In this document: positions 2,570 to 52,195 of the stretch, piece after piece
How the letters are laid out: the number at the start of each line of letters is the position of its first letter
How positions within the stretch are numbered: the stretch's first letter is position 1
From: Candidatus Nomurabacteria bacterium
Lineage (GTDB): Bacteria > Patescibacteriota > Minisyncoccia > Phycocordibacterales > UBA9973
DNA length: 64,000 nucleotides
Direction of reading: 5' to 3'
Assembly: GCA_023898605.1 (NCBI GenBank)
Contig: CP060230.1
Coordinates: forward strand, 131,944 to 195,943
Position numbers and translations under genes: made by a program
Notes under the pieces: model-generated
Told to the model about the DNA's origin: nothing
Database searches by the model: none
What the model saw: the letters and a program-made list of their open reading frames with translations, nothing else

Positions 2570-3004
2570 TTAAAACTTTGAAATTCTTCTAGCGTGTCTT
2601 TCTTCACCCGAAAAAGGCGTTTCTAAAAAAGTTTTTATTATTTCTTCTAAGTAAGAATCTTCTACAAAACCACCTCCAATAGAAAGTACATTTGCATTGT
2701 TGTGTTTTCGTAGTAGTTTTACTATCTCTATGTTCCCTCCATAGAAAACACCAGCTCTAACACCACTATATCTATTGGAAACCATAGCTTCTCCTTGACC
2801 GCTTTTTCCAAATACAAATCCGAAACTTCCAGCATCTTTCGATACAGCATCGCCGACTTTTGAAACATAGTCTGGATAGTCGTCATCTTTGTCAAAAGAA
2901 AGAGCTCCGAGATCTTCTACGTCGTATCCAGAAGTAGATAGTATGTTTTTTACTTTTTCTTTTGTCTCAAAACCTGCATGGTCTGTTCCTAGATAAATTT
3001 TCAT
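2570..3004 (-). CDS. rpiB: Ribose-5-phosphate isomerase B
   Basis: MKIYLGTDHAGFETKEKV...DYPDY...LLRKHNNANVLSIGGGFV...FLETPFSGEERHARRISKF matches RpiB/LacAB. The ORF could start 15 nt further upstream (MNKNSMKIY, 3019). Confidence 0.85.
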   Translation of the reverse strand: MKIYLGTDHAGFETKEKVKNILSTSGYDVEDLGALSFDKDDDYPDYVSKVGDAVSKDAGSFGFVFGKSGQGEAMVSNRYSGVRAGVFYGGNIEIVKLLRKHNNANVLSIGGGFVEDSYLEEIIKTFLETPFSGEERHARRISKF

Positions 3005-3005
3005 A

Positions 3006-3308
3006 CTATTCTTGTTCATTTTCTTCTTTATTAAAAGGATGTATTGTTTTACTCATTTCTTTATATTGTCCTGTTCTAAAATATCTTTCATATTCCGAAG
3101 GAGTGACTTTGTCTACATCTTCAAAAGTGACGTCATCTACATAAGACTCTACTATAAATTTTTTTCCATCAGGCGTCTCACACTCTATAAGTGCATAATT
3201 TTCAGTATAGTCTACAGGTCCTATAGGTTTTTCTTTCTTAGAAAAATCCTGACCTCCAGCACTAGATTCTATACCCTTATTGAACATTTTACCTATACCA
3301 CTAAACAT
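3006..3308 (-). CDS. Hypothetical small acidic protein
   Basis: 100-aa ORF in an operon-like position between the YceI and rpiB genes; no recognisable motif. Confidence 0.4.
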   Translation of the reverse strand: MFSGIGKMFNKGIESSAGGQDFSKKEKPIGPVDYTENYALIECETPDGKKFIVESYVDDVTFEDVDKVTPSEYERYFRTGQYKEMSKTIHPFNKEENEQE

Positions 3309-3312
3309 AATA

Positions 3313-3909
3313 TTAATTTAGATTTATTGTTAATTCTACAACTTCATTTGCAAGAGTTTGGTTTATCCCAAAGTCTTTCATGTCTATATTGAAGTTGGAA
3401 GAAAATCCTTCGCCTGTAGTGGTAAATGGTACTGTTATTTCTTTTGTAACACCATGAACGGTTAGGTTTCCAGTTACGGTTGTATCTGTGTTACCTGTGA
3501 TCTTGAAAGTTGCTTCAGGATAAGTTGTCGTATCAAAGAATCGGTCTGATTTTAGATCAGTAGTAAGTAGGTCAATTCCTGTGTTTATACTGTTCACGTC
3601 CGCTACTATTTCTCCAGAGAAAACCATAGATTCATCTGTCGCAAAAGTACTAGTTACAGAATCTATCGTTCCTTTGTGTTCTTTTCCTGGACCGAATCCC
3701 ACAAAACTTATACTAGCGCTATATTGTCGTCCTCTTTGTGCTACTTGGTTATCTACTACATCCTCTTCTACGGTTAGAGTTGTTTCGTCTACTGCCTTGT
3801 TCCCTACTTCTGCAAAAGGAACTATGTTGTCTGGTTTTACTGAAAAAGCGAGATACGCACCTCCAACAAGGATTATTAGTAGAACTGCAATTGTTATCTT
3901 TTTTGTCAT
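3313..3909 (-). CDS. YceI-like (polyisoprenoid-binding) periplasmic protein
   Basis: N-terminal TM/signal, then ...TGNLTVHGVTKEITVPFTTTGEGF..., typical of the YceI family. Confidence 0.7.
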   Translation of the reverse strand: MTKKITIAVLLIILVGGAYLAFSVKPDNIVPFAEVGNKAVDETTLTVEEDVVDNQVAQRGRQYSASISFVGFGPGKEHKGTIDSVTSTFATDESMVFSGEIVADVNSINTGIDLLTTDLKSDRFFDTTTYPEATFKITGNTDTTVTGNLTVHGVTKEITVPFTTTGEGFSSNFNIDMKDFGINQTLANEVVELTINLN

Positions 3910-3910
3910 A

Positions 3911-4939
3911 TTAGTTTATCGTTTCTCCTGTTTTTATAGCGTGATCGACAAGGGTTGCTGTGTATCCCATCTCGTTATCATACCAACCCATCACTTTTAC
4001 AAGGTTTCCATCTACTACTCTTGTCATAGCTAGGTCTGCGATAGATGCATGTGTCCTACCTAGTATGTCACTAGACACAAGAGGTTCTTCTGTAACAGAG
4101 AATATTTTGGACCATCTGTCTGTGCCGGCAGCGTCTTTCAAGATCTGATTTATTTCTTCGGCACTGGTATCTCTTTTTGCCAAAAATGTTATGTCTACGA
4201 TTGATCCCGCTGGAACAGGAACTCTTGTAGATATGCCGTCAAACTTTCCAGTAAGTTCTGTAAATGCTTTTGTTACAGCGATAGCTGCACCAGTACTACT
4301 AGGGACTATGTTTTGTGCCGCAGCGCGACCTTCGCGCAAATCTTTTTTGCTAGGTCCATCAACAAGAGCTTGAGATGCAGTGTATCCATGAACGGTATTT
4401 AGTAGAGCTTTCTCTATACCAACTGTTTCGTGAAGTATAGCGATAAGTGGGCTAGATGCGTTTGTAGTACAAGAAGCGTTACTTGTGATATCACATGTTC
4501 CAAATCTGTCTTCGTTTACTCCAAGTAGGATTGTTTCAGATTTTTGTTCACCTTCTCCATCTTTTGAAGGTGCGCTTATCACAACCCTCTTTGCACCTTG
4601 GTCTAGGTGAAATTTTGATTTTTCGTATGAAGTAAATAGTCCAGTAGATTCTATTACGATATCTACATCCATTTCTCCCCACGGTAGACCCGCTGGTTCT
4701 TTGCTAGAGATAAATTTTACTTTTCTTCCATCTACGATTATATTTTCTCCATCATTTGTTACTTCATGTCCCCAAGTTCGGTAAACAGTGTCGTATTTTA
4801 GTAAGTAAGTTAGTGAATCTATCGATCCGAGGTCGTTTATAGCTACCACTTCTATCTCTGGTCTATCCCAAGACAATTTGAAGAATGCTCTACCTATTCG
4901 ACCGAATCCGTTTATTGCTACTTTGTATGTTTTTGACAT
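3911..4939 (-). CDS. gap: Glyceraldehyde-3-phosphate dehydrogenase (type I)
   Basis: INGFGRIGR NAD-binding motif and SNASCTTN active-site cysteine motif; 342 aa. Confidence 0.95.
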   Translation of the reverse strand: MSKTYKVAINGFGRIGRAFFKLSWDRPEIEVVAINDLGSIDSLTYLLKYDTVYRTWGHEVTNDGENIIVDGRKVKFISSKEPAGLPWGEMDVDIVIESTGLFTSYEKSKFHLDQGAKRVVISAPSKDGEGEQKSETILLGVNEDRFGTCDITSNASCTTNASSPLIAILHETVGIEKALLNTVHGYTASQALVDGPSKKDLREGRAAAQNIVPSSTGAAIAVTKAFTELTGKFDGISTRVPVPAGSIVDITFLAKRDTSAEEINQILKDAAGTDRWSKIFSVTEEPLVSSDILGRTHASIADLAMTRVVDGNLVKVMGWYDNEMGYTATLVDHAIKTGETIN

Positions 4940-5187
4940 TTTGGTTCTTTGTTACTTCTTATAAAGAGTCCTGTATATTGTAACAATAAAATCCCGTATA
5001 CAAAAACCTGTATTACGGGATTGATATTTTTCTGTTTTATTGTATTAATTTGGTTTGTATGAGTGCTTTTTCGTGGTAAAATCTTGCTGTATTTGTTGAT
5101 TGCAGTACTTTATTGAAAGTACGTATAACATACAAATTTTTGTAGCTTACTAGTCGAAAAGTTACGATAAAAATGAGTTATATTCAA

Positions 5188-5226
5188 TTTTACATTTAAG
5201 AACAAAAGGAAAAGCCCACCAAAACT
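5188..5226. repeat. Left arm of nested inverted repeats (outer 5188-5204 ttttacatttaagaaca; inner 5210-5226 aaaagcccaccaaaact)
   Basis: Perfect reverse complements at 5701-5717 (tgttcttaaatgtaaaa) and 5645-5661 (agttttggtgggctttt); seen directly in the sequence. Confidence 0.85.
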
Positions 5227-5256
5227 TTATATAGATTTGAAATTCTACAATATATT

Positions 5257-5643
5257 ATGCAAGAAAATAAAATCACAATCATCATAAATAAACCAATTGA
5301 AGAAGTCTTTGAATTTACAACAAATCCAAAAAATACTCATTTATGGATTCCTTCAATTGTTGAAGAAGTTGCAGAAGAATATCCTCCTCAAATTGGAACA
5401 AAATATAAAAACAGAGGAAATGATTCTGATTGGGATTTCTATAAAGTTGTAGAATTTCAAAATAACAAAATATTCACGCTTTCTGATTTAGAAGATAATT
5501 ATCATGTTAAATACACTTATCGTAAAATTGATGATAATCAAACAGAAATGGAATATTTTGAATGGATGGAAAACGGAGAATTAAATAATCCATTTACTGA
5601 GGATATAATTCAAAAATTAAAGTCAGTTATGGAATCCAATTAA
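5257..5643 (+). CDS. SRPBCC-fold (polyketide-cyclase/AHSA1-like) small protein
   Basis: 128 aa, the only plus-strand gene in a minus-strand block; ...KPIEEVFEFTTNPKNTHLWIPS... resembles SRPBCC N-termini. Enclosed by two nested perfect 17-bp inverted repeats. Confidence 0.5.
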   Translation: MQENKITIIINKPIEEVFEFTTNPKNTHLWIPSIVEEVAEEYPPQIGTKYKNRGNDSDWDFYKVVEFQNNKIFTLSDLEDNYHVKYTYRKIDDNQTEMEYFEWMENGELNNPFTEDIIQKLKSVMESN

Positions 5644-5644
5644 C

Positions 5645-5717
5645 AGTTTTGGTGGGCTTTTCTAATTATTGACTCCCTTTGGTCGATATTTAATAATATA
5701 TGTTCTTAAATGTAAAA
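5645..5717. repeat. Right arm of nested inverted repeats (inner 5645-5661, outer 5701-5717)
   Basis: Reverse complement of 5210-5226 and 5188-5204 respectively. Confidence 0.85.
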
Positions 5718-5719
5718 CT

Positions 5720-5860
5720 CTGAAATTTTCCTTCGGAACGTTGCACTCTGGCTCGGGGCTAACGCCCTCACTTAACACAGAATATGCGGTTTCGCTCGTG
5801 CCCCTGCTCGACTAATATTTGCCTCCGCTATCGTTACGGCAAACACCAGATATACTGAAA
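5720..5860. other. GC-rich (~52%) non-coding block, possible structured RNA of unknown class
   Basis: Compositional outlier in AT-rich DNA, with local hairpins (gggc-taac-gccc) and no ORF. No tRNA T-loop and no SRP or tmRNA signature recognised. Confidence 0.25.
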
Positions 5861-5862
5861 CG

Positions 5863-7356
5863 TTAAATTAATTCTTTCAATAATTCTTGTACAAGTGCTG
5901 GATTTGCACTACCAGCAGTTTCCTTCATAACTTTTCCTACAAGTGACATAAGAGCATTTTCCTTTCCACCCTTATATGTTTCTACAACATCTTGGTTTTC
6001 AGAAATTACTTTTTCTACAATAGCCTTGAGTGCTTCTGGATCATTTTTCTGTATAAGACCTTTTTCTTCTGCAAAAGTAGCTGGGTCTAGGTCACTTTTT
6101 GTCATTTCTATAAGTATGTCTTTTGTACTTCTAGAAGAAAGAGAGCCATCTTTGAACATCTTTATAAGAGAGGAGAAACTTTTATCGTTTGGTATTTTTG
6201 CTTCAGGATCTTTTGCCAAAGTACCGACAAGATCAGAAGTTATAAAGTTTGAAGCTGTTTTTATGAGCTCTTTGTCAGAATCAAAATCAGCTATAACTTT
6301 CTCGAAGAACTCTCCGAGACTTAGATTATTTATATAACTTTCTATATCTTCGTCTTTTATACCAAACTCGTTTCTATATCTATTTCTCTTTTCTTCTGGT
6401 AATTCTGGAAGATTTTTTTCTATTTCTTTTATATCGAAAAGAGTATGAAGTTTGAATTTGGGAATATCTGGTTCTGGGAAATATCTGTAATCAGACGCAT
6501 TTTCTTTGCTTCTTTGAGAGAAGGTTTTTCCTTTGTTTTCGTCCCAGCCACGAGTTTCCTGCCTTATTTCTCCATCTCTTAGCATTGTATGTAGCTCTTC
6601 CATTCTGTCGAATTCGTACAAAACTGCTCTTTCCATGCTCTTGAATGAGTTTAGATTTTTGACCTCTACTTTTGTACCTAGAACAGATTGGAATTTATCC
6701 AAATCTGTTCGGCCGATCAATCCTTCGGATTGATTTAGGCCTTCAAGTTCGAGTTTCTTTGAGCTAGTTATAGATATGTTTGCTTCAACTCTCATCTCGC
6801 CTTTTTCCATGTTTGCTTCAGATACACCCAAATACCACAGTAGTAGTTGTAGATCTCTTGCAAACTTTCCTGCTACTCTTATCGCCTCGTCTTTATCATC
6901 GAAGGTATGAGGTTCTGTAACTAGCTCCATAAGCGGCACGCCAGCCCTGTTTAGATCAACTAGAGTTTTTTCGTCACCATGTTTTGACGTACCTGTATCT
7001 TCTTCTAGGTGTATTCTTGTTATGTCGAAACCAGACAGGTGTCCTCCTGAAACTATAGGGTATTTGTACTGGCTTATCTGATAACCTTTTGGTATGTCTG
7101 GATAAAAATAGTTTTTTCTATCAAATTCAGTAAAGTCTGCAATATTTCCTCCTATTGCAAGACCAACCTTTATAACATTTTTTATCGCCTCTTCATTTGG
7201 AACAGGCAGAGTTCCTGGTTGAGCGCTACACACAGGACATATGTTTCTGTTGGGTTTTTGTTCATCTGGGTCATTCTTACAAGAACAAAACATCTTTGTT
7301 TTAGTAGAAAGTTCCGCGTGGACCTCTAGTCCAATTGTGTAATAAAATTTCTCCAT
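5863..7356 (-). CDS. gatB: Asp-tRNA(Asn)/Glu-tRNA(Gln) amidotransferase subunit B
   Basis: N-terminal YYTIGLEVHAELSTKTKMFCSC...CPVCSAQPGTLPV; 497 aa. Confidence 0.95.
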   Translation of the reverse strand: MEKFYYTIGLEVHAELSTKTKMFCSCKNDPDEQKPNRNICPVCSAQPGTLPVPNEEAIKNVIKVGLAIGGNIADFTEFDRKNYFYPDIPKGYQISQYKYPIVSGGHLSGFDITRIHLEEDTGTSKHGDEKTLVDLNRAGVPLMELVTEPHTFDDKDEAIRVAGKFARDLQLLLWYLGVSEANMEKGEMRVEANISITSSKKLELEGLNQSEGLIGRTDLDKFQSVLGTKVEVKNLNSFKSMERAVLYEFDRMEELHTMLRDGEIRQETRGWDENKGKTFSQRSKENASDYRYFPEPDIPKFKLHTLFDIKEIEKNLPELPEEKRNRYRNEFGIKDEDIESYINNLSLGEFFEKVIADFDSDKELIKTASNFITSDLVGTLAKDPEAKIPNDKSFSSLIKMFKDGSLSSRSTKDILIEMTKSDLDPATFAEEKGLIQKNDPEALKAIVEKVISENQDVVETYKGGKENALMSLVGKVMKETAGSANPALVQELLKELI

Positions 7357-8909: not shown

Positions 8910-9663
8910 ATACTTCTTCTTTTTGTTCTTCCAACTTTTCTATAGTCATGTCAGAATATTTGTCATCCTGGTTTACATCTAACAATCCTGATCTTACCAT
9001 CTCTAGAAGAGCTAGAAAAGAAACAATAGTGAATACTTTTGCTTCTTTTTCGTTCATGCCATTTGTTTCGTTTGAACAAAACTCTTTGAAAGATGTTTTG
9101 AATGATTCTTGTATTCTGTCAGAGATGCTTTCTATAACGTCTTCTATTTTTATAGCAACAGAAACTTCTACTCTAGAAAGAATTTCTTTTTCTGGCATCT
9201 TGGACAGAACTTCTCGCACAGATTCTTCTAGCACCTCTCGTCCTAGATTGTCTCCAGGAGAAAAGAAGCTAACTTCAGCCTTTCTTTCTTTGAGTGGATG
9301 TAGGCTAACTTCTTTTGTGTGATTCAAAAGTATTGGTAGTGCATCAGTTATGGTTTTGAAAAACAAAAGTCTTTTTTCTAGGTCTTTTATGTCACTTTCT
9401 TCTTCTGTTGAAATAGAAAGGTTTGGAAGTAAGCTTTTTGCCTTGATTAGTATCAGGGTTGCTGCAACACGTATAAAGCTCGTGACTTCGCCTATTTTGT
9501 CTTTGTTTTGTTCCAAAAACTTTATATAGTCTTCGGCAACTTCTTTGATAGAGATTTCGTTTATGAACAATTTTCTTTTCTGTATAAGCTCCAAAAGTAG
9601 CTCGAGTGGTCCCTCGAAAACTTGAGTTTTTACTACAAATTGGTTCTTGTTATTGTCCTCCAC
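8902..9663 (-). CDS. scpA: Segregation and condensation protein A
   Basis: FEGPLELLLELIQKRKLFINEISIKEVAEDYIKFL is the canonical ScpA N-terminus. Confidence 0.8.
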   Translation of the reverse strand: MEDNNKNQFVVKTQVFEGPLELLLELIQKRKLFINEISIKEVAEDYIKFLEQNKDKIGEVTSFIRVAATLILIKAKSLLPNLSISTEEESDIKDLEKRLLFFKTITDALPILLNHTKEVSLHPLKERKAEVSFFSPGDNLGREVLEESVREVLSKMPEKEILSRVEVSVAIKIEDVIESISDRIQESFKTSFKEFCSNETNGMNEKEAKVFTIVSFLALLEMVRSGLLDVNQDDKYSDMTIEKLEEQKEEVYE

Positions 9664-9666
9664 GAT

Positions 9667-11100
9667 TTATTTCTTGTCTTTCTTTAGCGATATTCCAAGT
9701 TCGTCTAGTTGTTTGTCAGAAACTTTTGAAGGAGACTGCATCATGAGATCTTTTCCTTCTCCGTTTTTTGGGAATGCTATAACTTCTCTTATGTTTGGTT
9801 CGTTTTCTAGGATCATTACAAGTCTATCGAATCCCCACGCAATTCCTCCATGTGGAGGACATCCTCCATCTAGTGCATCTAGCATGTGAGAGAAATCACT
9901 TTCTACTTCTTCCTTGTTGTAACCCATGATATCAAATACTTTTTCTAGGGCTTCTTTTTCGTGGTTTCTTATACTTCCTCCGCCTATTTCGTACCCGTTT
10001 AGGATTATGTCGTATTGTGAAGTTATTATTTCTCCTATATCTTTTTCGTTCATTAGTTTATCCATGTCTTCCGGTATCGGTCTAGAAAATGGGTTGTGTG
10101 TAAATGTCCAAGATCCTTTCATGTTTGCGTTGTCAGACTTGGCTGTTGATTCGAAAAATGGGAAATCTACAACCCACAAAAATGCCAAAAGGTTTGGATC
10201 GTTTTTGTCTTCTCTTATGTCTGGTCTATCGCTACCATATTTTTCCATAGCGTCTTTGTAAGACATTCTAGGGAAAGGTATTTGTTGTATTCTTTTTTCT
10301 GGATATATTTCTTTGACGATTTTTATGAGAAGTTCTTCGTTTAGATTCATAACGTCTTCCATTTCGACAAAACTCATTTCCATATCGAGTTGAGTAAACT
10401 CTGGTTGTCTGTCACCTCTTGTATCTTCGTCTCTCATACATTTTGCAAATTGGAAATATCTTTCCATTCCTCCAGCCATGAGAAGTTGTTTGTATTGCTG
10501 TGGTGATTGAGGTAAAGCGTAAAAGTTTCCAGGATAAAGTCTAGACGGTACAACATAGTCTCTTGCACCTTCTGGAGTAGACTTTGTTAGAATCGGTGTT
10601 TCTATCTCGACAAAGTTTTGTTGAGACAAGAAATTCCGTACAAGAGTTGTGATCTTGCTTCTGTTTCTTATGTTTTTTTGCAGCCTTTTTCTTCTTAGGT
10701 CTAGATATTTGTATTTTAGTCTCACTTCTTCACCTATTTCTAGTCCATCTGTATGTATATCAAAGTTTGGAGTGTGAGCTTTGTTTAGAACTTCGATGTT
10801 TAGTATTTCTAGTTCTATTGTTCCGTTTTCTTTCTCTGGTTGTTTGTTTCTCTCCGGTCTTTCGTTTACTTTTGCACCGATTCTAACTACCCACTCGTCT
10901 CTAAGTGATTGGCCAGCTTCCATCGCGTCTGATCCTGGCAGTATCACACCCTGGACGATACCTGAGAAGTCTCTTATTTCCAAGAAAATCATCTTTCCTT
11001 GATCGCGTCTTACGTCTACCCAGCCAGAAATACTGACCTCTTCTCCGACCTTATTTTGTAAGTCTTTTATGTATGTTCTCTCTTTCATATAGACTGCCAT
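9667..11100 (-). CDS. aspS: Aspartate--tRNA ligase (short form without GAD insertion, presumably non-discriminating)
   Basis: FYALPQSPQQYKQLLMAGGMERYFQFAKCMRDEDTRGDRQPEFTQLDMEMSF class-II motif 2; 477 aa. Confidence 0.9.
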   Translation of the reverse strand: MAVYMKERTYIKDLQNKVGEEVSISGWVDVRRDQGKMIFLEIRDFSGIVQGVILPGSDAMEAGQSLRDEWVVRIGAKVNERPERNKQPEKENGTIELEILNIEVLNKAHTPNFDIHTDGLEIGEEVRLKYKYLDLRRKRLQKNIRNRSKITTLVRNFLSQQNFVEIETPILTKSTPEGARDYVVPSRLYPGNFYALPQSPQQYKQLLMAGGMERYFQFAKCMRDEDTRGDRQPEFTQLDMEMSFVEMEDVMNLNEELLIKIVKEIYPEKRIQQIPFPRMSYKDAMEKYGSDRPDIREDKNDPNLLAFLWVVDFPFFESTAKSDNANMKGSWTFTHNPFSRPIPEDMDKLMNEKDIGEIITSQYDIILNGYEIGGGSIRNHEKEALEKVFDIMGYNKEEVESDFSHMLDALDGGCPPHGGIAWGFDRLVMILENEPNIREVIAFPKNGEGKDLMMQSPSKVSDKQLDELGISLKKDKK

Positions 11101-11148
11101 TATAACATTTTTATAGCTAAAAGGTAGCCCAGATTTTTGTAATAAAAA

Positions 11149-11180
11149 AGCCTTGAGTTTAAAATTCTAAACTCAAGGCT
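11149..11180. terminator. Intrinsic terminator hairpin (agccttgagttt-aaaattct-aaactcaaggct) with flanking A/T runs
   Basis: Perfect 12-bp stem; on the minus strand it is followed by a T-run, downstream of the 11193..12017 gene. Confidence 0.7.
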
Positions 11181-11192
11181 TTTGATCGTTTC

Positions 11193-12127: not shown

Positions 12128-12167
12128 AAGGTAACACCAAACTACGATCGTAGTTTGGTGTTACCTT
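12128..12167. terminator. Perfect 40-nt palindromic hairpin (aaggtaacaccaaactacga|tcgtagtttggtgttacctt), trpS terminator
   Basis: Perfect palindrome 25 nt downstream of the trpS stop, followed on the minus strand by a T-run. Confidence 0.75.
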
Positions 12168-51899: not shown

Positions 51900-52195
51900 A
51901 TGAGTTGTGGTACCCTTGTAGAAAATTTTAGATTAGTTTTGTTTGCTTTGTTTTGTTTTTTTGGCTTTAGGCGAAAAAACTCATCAGATTTCGTCTTTCG
52001 TCATAAAATCACGTTAAAGACTAATCTTTGTGAATTGTCATTGCAAATCTCATTTCTAAGATTTACTACTCTGGACATCGATCCAGATATTTTGATTGAT
52101 TGGCTTTAGCCAAAAAAACAAAACTACCTATGATTTAATCTCCCTTCAAAATATACAAAACTATTACTAAAAGATTCAAGGTACCACGTCACCGA
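51900..52195 (-). ncRNA. Candidate retron msr/msd non-coding RNA
   Basis: Upstream of and co-directional with the RT. 8-bp inverted repeats gtggtacc (51907-51914) and ggtaccac (52180-52187) are positioned like retron a2/a1. A perfect 16-bp long-range inverted repeat (51950-51965 gttttgtttttttggc with 52109-52124 gccaaaaaaacaaaac) encloses a ~140-nt hairpin-rich segment. ORF-free. Confidence 0.4.

Follow-up and report, generated by a model that had tools for sequence, protein, structure and literature searches.

A stranded integron-like cassette in a Candidatus Nomurabacteria chromosome belongs to a family of cassettes with self-complementary ends

Introduction

Integrons are the main gene-capture system of bacteria, and both the construction of their cassettes and the evolution of their integrases are still debated. 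In the standard description of a cassette, the inverted repeats are the R and L boxes only, and excision increases as two attC sites come closer on single-stranded DNA (ssDNA), on the lagging-strand template (PMC5371416). The I2 helix of the integrase is regarded as the innovation that enabled recombination of single-stranded attC sites, with no intermediates known (PMC7790495). Clusters of attC sites (CALIN) and single attC sites (SALIN), both without an integrase, have been described, and solitary chromosomal cassettes are known (PMC9668308, PMC9024848, bioRxiv 10.1101/2022.09.11.507474). Here we describe a locus in a 64-kb stretch of the chromosome of a Candidatus Nomurabacteria bacterium (contig CP060230.1; hereafter the window), where a gene for an SRPBCC-fold protein is surrounded by nested inverted repeats, and we compare it with integrons and with the cassette arrays of its relatives.

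Pairing between distant segments of a single strand is also part of other systems. In the CTX-phi type of integrative mobile elements exploiting Xer (IMEX), Xer recombinases, which have no I2, use a site made by intrastrand pairing of distant inverted ssDNA segments. In RNA, pairing of the 5' and 3' untranslated regions (UTRs) of icaR in Staphylococcus aureus and hbs in Bacillus subtilis, and the processing stalks of rRNA, loop out a functional unit by long-range pairing. A literature search, incomplete in its coverage, returned nothing on integrons in bacteria of the candidate phyla radiation (CPR) or on extended pairing of cassette ends. The feature in the window is a stranded cassette; its interest lies in the design rule that it exposes and the recombinase family that it indicates, and it led us to cassette arrays in ultra-small bacteria, a large population that has been little described.

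Results

The SRPBCC gene is a horizontally transferred integron-type cassette, stranded between gatB and gapA, and positions 5117-5868 are the remnant of an integron-like element that comprises an attI-like site, a single cassette (5177-5862) and a single attC-like hairpin (Table 1). Position numbers are those of the window, and L-numbers (L004, L005 and so on) denote relative loci fetched for comparison, either via the SRPBCC gene (52 genome loci) or via the recombinase described below (including L140-L146). In every relative compared, more than 10 loci with unrelated upstream DNA, the left boundary falls at G/TT, the slash marking the crossover, and right ends are also at G/TT. Homology begins at G/TTATATTC (5177) in L004, L005, L013, L015, L017, L021, L036, L010 and L008, the DNA upstream of it being different in all. 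On the right, homology to most relatives stops at 5747, 30 nt beyond the outer arm of the inverted repeats. Measured from the outer arms, the left boundary (5177) lies 11 nt outside and the right G/TT core (5862) 145 nt outside.

Evidence of transfer comes from the contrast between the cassette and its surroundings. Cassette DNA is 95% identical over 574 nt in L004 and 87% identical in L005, and 323 database sequences are related to the 128-aa protein at 70-93% identity, with bin labels that include Parcubacteria, Peribacteria, Gracilibacteria, SR1, Saccharibacteria and several DPANN archaeal groups; these are labels of metagenome-assembled genome bins and are unreliable as taxonomy. By comparison, the closest relative of the host GatB is at most 65% identical. 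None of the 52 genome loci shares neighbouring genes with the window, and synteny comparison found shared neighbours in no locus except that of the same organism. The GC content is about 25% in the cassette region versus 37% in the window. A relative (63% identical) keeps the order gatB...gapA-rpiB-rpe without the cassette; with the nearest GatB 65% identical, an empty site in close relatives was not obtainable, and this comparison is one of gene order only. The core GTT of the attC-like site (5862-5864) overlaps the gatB stop codon (5863-5865, minus strand), and thus the inserted DNA ends exactly at the end of gatB.

The attC-like site was recognized with R1, a covariance model that we built for the purpose (not the IntegronFinder model) from 19 of 37 candidates found in other loci by a heuristic scan, with the window left out. 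It is the sole R1 match in the window (46.3 bits, E 1.9e-8), and it explains a GC-rich patch that has, like the inverted repeats, no match in Rfam, whether in a scan of the window at gathering thresholds or in a permissive scan of 4850-5950. The attC palindrome is present, with AAC at 5774-5776 and GTT at 5862-5864, and the bottom strand folds into an R box, a 3-nt bulge and an L box. Extrahelical bases and bottom-strand recombination would be consistent with the conserved bulge and with an A-C position that would read T-G in the bottom strand.

Sites of this kind are abundant in the relatives. The array of L015 consists of short open reading frames (ORFs) separated by GC-rich imperfect palindromes of 85-140 nt, ...ATAAC-A-(11 nt)...(11 nt complementary)-AAAC-GTTA..., a layout the same as that of integron attC sites (R''-L''...L'-R'). 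The heuristic candidates are mostly of the same geometry, 35 of the 37 lying on the gene strand, and in the other loci fetched via the SRPBCC gene R1 found 59 matches, all 59 in gene orientation and up to five per 6 kb. Co-oriented, attC-separated arrays are therefore present in relatives, the window itself having a single site. That site is homologous to the one upstream of the cassette in L015, L017 and L036. The cognate attC, whose R'' box GAATATAAC is the reverse complement of G/TTATATTC, is found in L015, L017, L021, L005, L036 and L074.

The attI-like site aligns with the stretch that separates the first cassette from the start codon of the recombinase in L005 and L025; in L096, L100 and L026 it aligns with DNA preceding the first cassettes. 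Blastn homology between the window and L005 starts at 5116. In L005 and L025 the stretch carries a pair of direct repeats (AAGTTYGYATAACA... and AAGTT.CGATAAAAA...), after which comes G/TT, and a conserved 60-nt putative attI site with two direct repeats adjoins the recombinase start in L005, L025, L140 and L141. Positions 5120-5190 were also considered as a degenerate attC site and rejected, as this segment does not fold (z +1.0), and an attI-like site was preferred.

A tyrosine recombinase of 270-287 aa, divergent from the array, is present in L005 (2035-2889, minus strand), L025 (2017-2877, minus strand), L013 and L033. Its best NCBIfam model is that of the integron integrase (TIGR02249), matched in two stretches at 205-225 bits by the two full-length proteins, below the cut-off of 265; the same two align colinearly with archaeal XerA and score 207-218 bits there, the cut-off being 220. 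The closest solved structure is the Vibrio integron integrase 2A3V (VchIntIA/IntI4; 173 bits), ahead of XerA (129 bits), and the alignment skips IntI4 residues ~211-240, the integron-specific insertion. By these alignments the recombinase of the relatives is closest to integron integrases and lacks the I2 domain specific to IntI. The family numbers more than 6600 proteins at E of 1e-40 or less, and the best 120 of these are 80-98% identical across many CPR lineages, an identity unusually high for such divergent hosts.

In the loci anchored on the recombinase (e.g., L140-L146, gene at 9001-9813), this gene always faces an array of small genes with attC-like sites on the array strand. The genomes of L140 and L141 are 99.8-99.9% identical and differ by ~3 kb of cassettes beside the recombinase, with the breakpoint (8754 in both) exactly at ...GCGCG/TTAT of an attC-like site, and one 391-nt cassette occupies different array positions in the two (L140 8387-8776, L141 5762-6152). 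These differences point to recent activity of the system through cassette shuffling. Another array beside the recombinase (L145 5575-8878) carries a HicA toxin with its partner gene and MazG-like cassettes.

Within the stranded cassette, three inverted repeats are nested. An earlier note on this DNA, made from its sequence, had described the outer one exactly as we find it and had given the inner one, which is real, a length of 17 nt instead of 18; a third pair, whose right arm lies inside the ORF at the VVEFQN codons, had been overlooked. The note's view that the repeats are not expected by chance is well supported. Perfect inverted repeats of at least 15 nt within 1.5 kb number six in the whole window, three of them at this locus, compared with a mean of 0.28 in Markov simulations of the window, and 594-nt simulations with the local AT-rich composition gave at least one in 0.16% of trials. 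The locus sequence is identical in three independent assemblies (NCBI, ENA and Logan), so the repeats are not an assembly artefact. The three arm pairs are mutually unrelated sequences, and a search of the window for further copies of the 17- and 18-nt arms, allowing up to three mismatches, gave nothing but one chance-level match. As the note also stated, the enclosed ORF (5257-5643) is the sole plus-strand gene in a minus-strand block, here of at least 12 kb.

Further features of this kind lie elsewhere in the window. The only other long-range repeat is a perfect one of 17 nt at 51950-51966 / 52108-52124, its arms 141 nt apart. A perfect 20-nt palindrome with adjacent arms (12128-12167) and a 16-nt hairpin (11146-11183) are probably terminators.

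Comparison of 20 related SRPBCC cassettes (alignment A2) shows that both the outer and the inner helix covary. In the outer helix, TTTTACA/TGTAAAA is replaced by TTTTGCA/TGCAAAA in one clade, and AAGAAC/GTTCTT by GAGAAC/GTTCTC in L070 and L075. In the inner helix, L004, 95% identical to the window, has two arm differences, and these are the two sides of one base pair, C to G compensated by G to C; in L068 and L070, a change of CCCACC to CCCGCC is matched by GGTGGG to GGCGGG, and one clade has a largely different yet complementary sequence (GAAAGCCAATAAAATT / AATTTTATTGGCTTT). Across A2, 78.8% of cells are paired, versus 33-52% when the partners are slid, and changes on both sides occur in 11 pairs (27 cells), a level reached in 0 of 500 shuffles. 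The third repeat has the form seen in the window only in the close relatives L004 and L116. The last 15-20 nt of the leader find their partner mid-ORF in the window group and at the ORF end in the L015 group, lineages outside the window group using 16-20 nt and the ORF end; in a compact cassette type the partner is the final 20 nt of the ORF. The left end of this compact type, GTTGTGCGAAATTAAATAATTTTTTTCAAAT, is the reverse complement of ATTTGAAAAAAATTATTTAACATCGCACAAC, its own attC R'' box plus 20 nt.

Pairing of this kind extends well beyond the SRPBCC gene. We surveyed ~35 cassettes in all, 27 of them for the cognate and permuted statistics, with canonical integrons not among them. In these 27, which carry unrelated genes, the first 110 nt hold nested perfect blocks complementary to the cassette's own 3' part, in a recurring order: a 9-nt R box, a 2-3-nt mismatch, a block from nt 12 and then up to three more. 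The blocks are 10-29 nt each, and their partner is the 3' UTR and ORF end of the same cassette. Summed block length averages 41 nt for cognate and 9.5 nt for non-cognate 5' ends, and 14 of the 27 cassettes have alignment scores above the 99th percentile of permuted pairs; with the 5' end of the following cassette as partner, scores resemble those of permuted pairs. At the recombinase-anchored loci, leader/ORF-end blocks of at least 15 nt occur in array genes and in none of ~40 other genes. The nested repeats are therefore the local case of a rule that holds across unrelated cassettes of this attC family: since the pattern is shared, the outer repeat is the first extension beyond the R box, with the inner and third repeats extending it further.

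In the window, the outer right arm is separated from R'' by an inserted module of ~50 nt. Modules headed by GTTGCACT, with small covarying hairpins, are found at this place in several unrelated cassettes, with sites in L015 (2795, 3468 and 4732, including cassette 4297-4770), L026 and L100. The hairpin that precedes the motif in the window covaries, TTCC/GGAA alternating with TCCC/GGGA in L116, L070, L075, L084 and L036. To the right of GTTGCACT, the window switches to an attC type that stands in front of this cassette, not behind it, in L015, L017 and L036, which suggests that the motif may be a secondary crossover site.

When the whole cassette is folded, the predicted DNA bottom-strand structure has an energy of -89.8 kcal/mol (z -9.5) and the plus-strand RNA one of -150.5 kcal/mol (z -8.5; -8.45), with all three helices in the minimum-energy fold of each. 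GC skew places the attC site's and the cassette's bottom strand on the probable lagging-strand template.

The assignment of the cassette gene to an SRPBCC fold, made in the earlier note, is supported by modelling. The AlphaFold model (pLDDT 91.8) has as its top Foldseek matches in the PDB 3ijt, 2flh, 2m89, PYL receptors and TcmN, of Bet v1/START/AHSA1 type, with TM scores up to 0.77; the Pfam family Polyketide_cyc2 (PF10604) is matched at 26.5 bits, just below its cut-off of 27.4, and a search of PDB sequences with the SRPBCC profile gave no match. The protein is thus predicted to have the helix-grip fold of the SRPBCC (START / Bet v1 / AHSA1) superfamily. Upstream of its start codon, the TTTATATA box, which homologues outside cassettes also have at an equal distance from the ATG, resembles a promoter element, either a bacterial -10 or an archaeal TATA box. 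A consensus promoter and terminator scan of the window was uninformative (8 promoter-like sites against 5.8 expected), and upstream of the cassette the window contains no plus-strand gene or recognizable promoter.

Table 1. Features of the integron-like remnant, in window coordinates
Feature	Position	Strand	Description
attI-like site	5117-5176	+	Direct repeats AAGTACGTATAACATACAA (5117-5135) and AAAAGTTACGATAAAAATGA (5157-5176), ending at the crossover
Left cassette boundary, R' core remainder G/TTATATTC	5177-5185	+	Start of homology in relatives
Outer inverted repeat	5188-5204 / 5701-5717		17 nt, 100% complementary; left arm begins at cassette nt 12
Inner inverted repeat	5209-5226 / 5645-5662		18 nt, perfect; right arm starts 2 nt after the stop codon
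TTTATATA box	5226-5233	+	23 nt ahead of the start codon; in A2 the 5' region has no better-conserved motif
Third inverted repeat	5236-5250 / 5447-5461		15 nt, perfect; left arm at -21 to -7 from the start codon
Cassette gene	5257-5643	+	128-aa protein, predicted SRPBCC fold
Small hairpin GACT-CCCTTT-GGTC	5671-5684	+	Internal loop between inner and outer right arms; kept in A2, double change in L084, present in both predicted folds
Hairpin TTCC-TTC-GGAA, then conserved GTTGCACT motif	5728-5747 (GTTGCACT 5740-5747)	+	Head of a module of ~45-70 nt
attC-like site	5770-5868	+	R'' TTAAC 5772-5776; L'' 5778-5789; L' 5846-5857; R' core GTT 5862-5864

Several observations on the SRPBCC cassettes and on the insertion site stand apart from the pairing. 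The complete Peribacteria genome L015 has the SRPBCC cassette with its attC site twice in one array (2929-3589 and 4876-5536). In L007 (~1515-1590 and ~2030-2105), L060 and L073, direct copies of a different hairpin element of ~75 nt (TATAAATCCCTATAAG...CTTATAGGGATTTATA), which may be another attC-like family, lie on either side of the SRPBCC gene. Two additional hairpins listed in the earlier note upstream of the gene are real, with other coordinates: atcccgta/tacgggat is at 4991-4998/5014-5021, not 4966-5004, and the second is at 5105-5111/5116-5122. The former (8 bp, 4991-5021) is situated between gapA and the insertion, has T-rich sequence beside it on both strands, and may be the original gatB terminator, now an insertion of ~750 bp away from gatB.

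Discussion

The locus described here combines a stranded integron-like remnant with a rule of pairing between the cognate 5' and 3' ends of cassettes. We infer that this pairing acts in ssDNA, the form in which attC sites recombine; taken as a whole, this combined reading seems to us somewhat better than an even proposition. In the excised circle, the arms would flank the attC site, lengthen its stem by 35-70 bp and stabilize the folded site for insertion. In the integrated array, they would loop out the ORF and draw together the attC hairpins upstream and downstream of it, favouring excision. More speculatively, the longer self-complementary stem may hold the folded substrate in place of the docking of extrahelical bases by I2. 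The junction of an excised circle would read ...ATATACTGAAACG/TTATATTCAATTTTAC, and an empty site would join the attI-like sequence to TTAAATTAATTC.

A number of observations weigh against an ssDNA role. tblastn found neither a recombinase nor a remnant of one in the window, and the attC-like site there is not cognate to its cassette, with 3 of 12 L-box positions mismatched; despite this, all 50 paired positions are perfect, which is equally compatible with a function in situ, such as one in RNA, and with a very recent arrival. In significance the RNA fold matches the DNA fold. L013 (1860-2442) is a natural recombinant, window-like in its 5' half and L015-like in its 3' half, in which the inner pairing is broken, and several relatives in A2 lack one arm and retain the gene; the pairing can thus be done without, at least in the short term. 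Templated repair can also yield perfect blocks with abrupt ends in the absence of any selected function. The survey took in only ~35 cassettes, and both the formation of the stem and its effect on recombination are predictions from sequence.

If the pairing acts in RNA instead, the 5' leader would pair with the ORF end and 3' UTR in a transcript from upstream, silencing translation by sequestering the 20 nt before the start codon, or forming a double-stranded stalk that is cut by RNase III or protects both mRNA ends, like the stems of 16S and 23S rRNA precursors. The plus-strand fold holds all three helices, the innermost left arm always adjoins the ATG on its upstream side and the right arm is often found at the stop codon, across lineages and unrelated cassettes, and this account is at ease with perfect pairing in a window that has no recombinase and with two intermediates of G-U type (L036 and L075). 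We nevertheless judge it unlikely. The complementarity has its start at the DNA crossover and prolongs the R box of attC, which a function in mRNA would not need, and mismatches, few as they are, show no bias towards G-U, with four G-T on the top strand and four on the bottom strand (G-U versus A-C in RNA terms). The promoter-like TTTATATA box is downstream of the outer and inner left arms, two of the three, so that the gene's own transcript would probably lack both, and upstream the window has neither a plus-strand gene nor a recognizable promoter. Of the long-range stem around the coding sequence that the earlier note envisaged in the transcript, what stands is a conserved, covarying potential for pairing, with DNA the favoured level over mRNA.

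The perfect blocks may have another origin, in which attC hairpins in ssDNA provoke fold-back or template-switch synthesis and mismatch correction that extend the palindrome outward and homogenize it in the circle, so that the blocks and the apparent compensatory changes are mutational footprints. Such a functionless by-product would account for abrupt block ends with asymmetric loops between them, for the rarity of internal mismatches (13 in 29 cassettes), for the lineage-dependent partner of the leader-proximal arm (mid-ORF, ORF end or 3' UTR), for cases where both arms can be coding (e.g., L015 3583-4161) and for the loss of arms from relatives that keep the gene. It would, however, have to be confined to the circle, with circles replicated often enough for most cassettes to bear footprints, since the 5' end of the neighbouring cassette is not complementary, and the regular start at nt 12 after a conserved 2-3-nt mismatch, recurring in unrelated cassettes, looks like a constrained design; we regard this origin as rather improbable. 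A transposon with terminal inverted repeats, or a cassette like a miniature inverted-repeat transposable element (MITE), with a transposase recognizing the 17-mers, is suggested by two perfect inverted repeats around one gene of foreign composition, and the earlier note had raised it. Mobility is borne out, by attC-like and attI-like sites of integron type; the repeats are not the ends of the element, the arms being internal, with homology running 11 nt past the left arm and at least 30 nt past the right and ending at G/TT cores. A target-site duplication, sought beside 5188 and 5717 as the note proposed, is absent, as are a second copy in the window and a transposase, the three arm pairs are unrelated, and viral contigs scanned with the outer-arm pattern gave two matches, both chance ones inside unrelated genes. 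We therefore give a transposon very little credence. Nor does the alternative framed in the note, that repeats unique to the locus and conserved with the gene would be regulatory rather than mobile, divide the possibilities correctly: the repeats are unique in the window and conserved with the gene, and the unit is mobile all the same.

With the reading of a stranded integron-type cassette whose ends pair in ssDNA thus preferred, its wider meaning can be considered. Tentatively, and with rather less confidence, we suggest that CPR bacteria and contigs binned as DPANN archaea may carry a widespread, active integron-like class that has a recombinase without I2 and rod-forming cassettes with far longer attC stems. 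If the long stem does replace I2 docking, it would be a natural alternative or an intermediate route to the recombination of cassettes in ssDNA. Self-complementary ends should alter the folding of cassettes, and these ends and the recombinase without I2 could inform models of integrase evolution, of the dynamics of cassette excision and of gene flow between CPR and DPANN.

The closest described systems are integrons. With their cassettes, including those of CALIN and SALIN, the elements described here share promoter-poor single-gene units with G/TT boundaries and an R''-L''...L'-R' palindrome with conserved AAC and GTT; with integrons as a whole they share arrays in one orientation, a divergent tyrosine recombinase, an adjoining putative attI site with direct repeats, and gain, loss and shuffling of cassettes at the crossover. 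The window itself has a lone cassette with a single attC-like match and no related recombinase in 64 kb, as in a SALIN, and without a recombinase it fits the notions of CALIN and SALIN; it differs from typical SALINs in keeping an attI-like site. The self-pairing cassette ends and the IntI-like recombinase lacking I2 are departures from the standard description of integrons. In standard cassettes complementarity is that of the boxes, whereas here it runs on for 35-70 nt past the R box and takes in the 5' leader and ORF end of the cassette itself; an extra GTTGCACT module is also present at many sites, and the elements occur in CPR bacteria and in contigs binned as DPANN archaea. IntI (VchIntIA, PDB 2A3V) is the recombinase's best solved relative, but the I2 region is skipped, the score is below the curated IntI cut-off and the protein is colinear with XerA. 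IMEX of the CTX-phi type differ in being phage genomes that integrate at dif, not arrays of single-gene cassettes with attI. The pairing in icaR, hbs and the rRNA stalks, in turn, takes place in RNA, tolerates G-U and is specific to one gene, whereas in these cassettes pairing is tied to the DNA crossover and recurs in unrelated genes.

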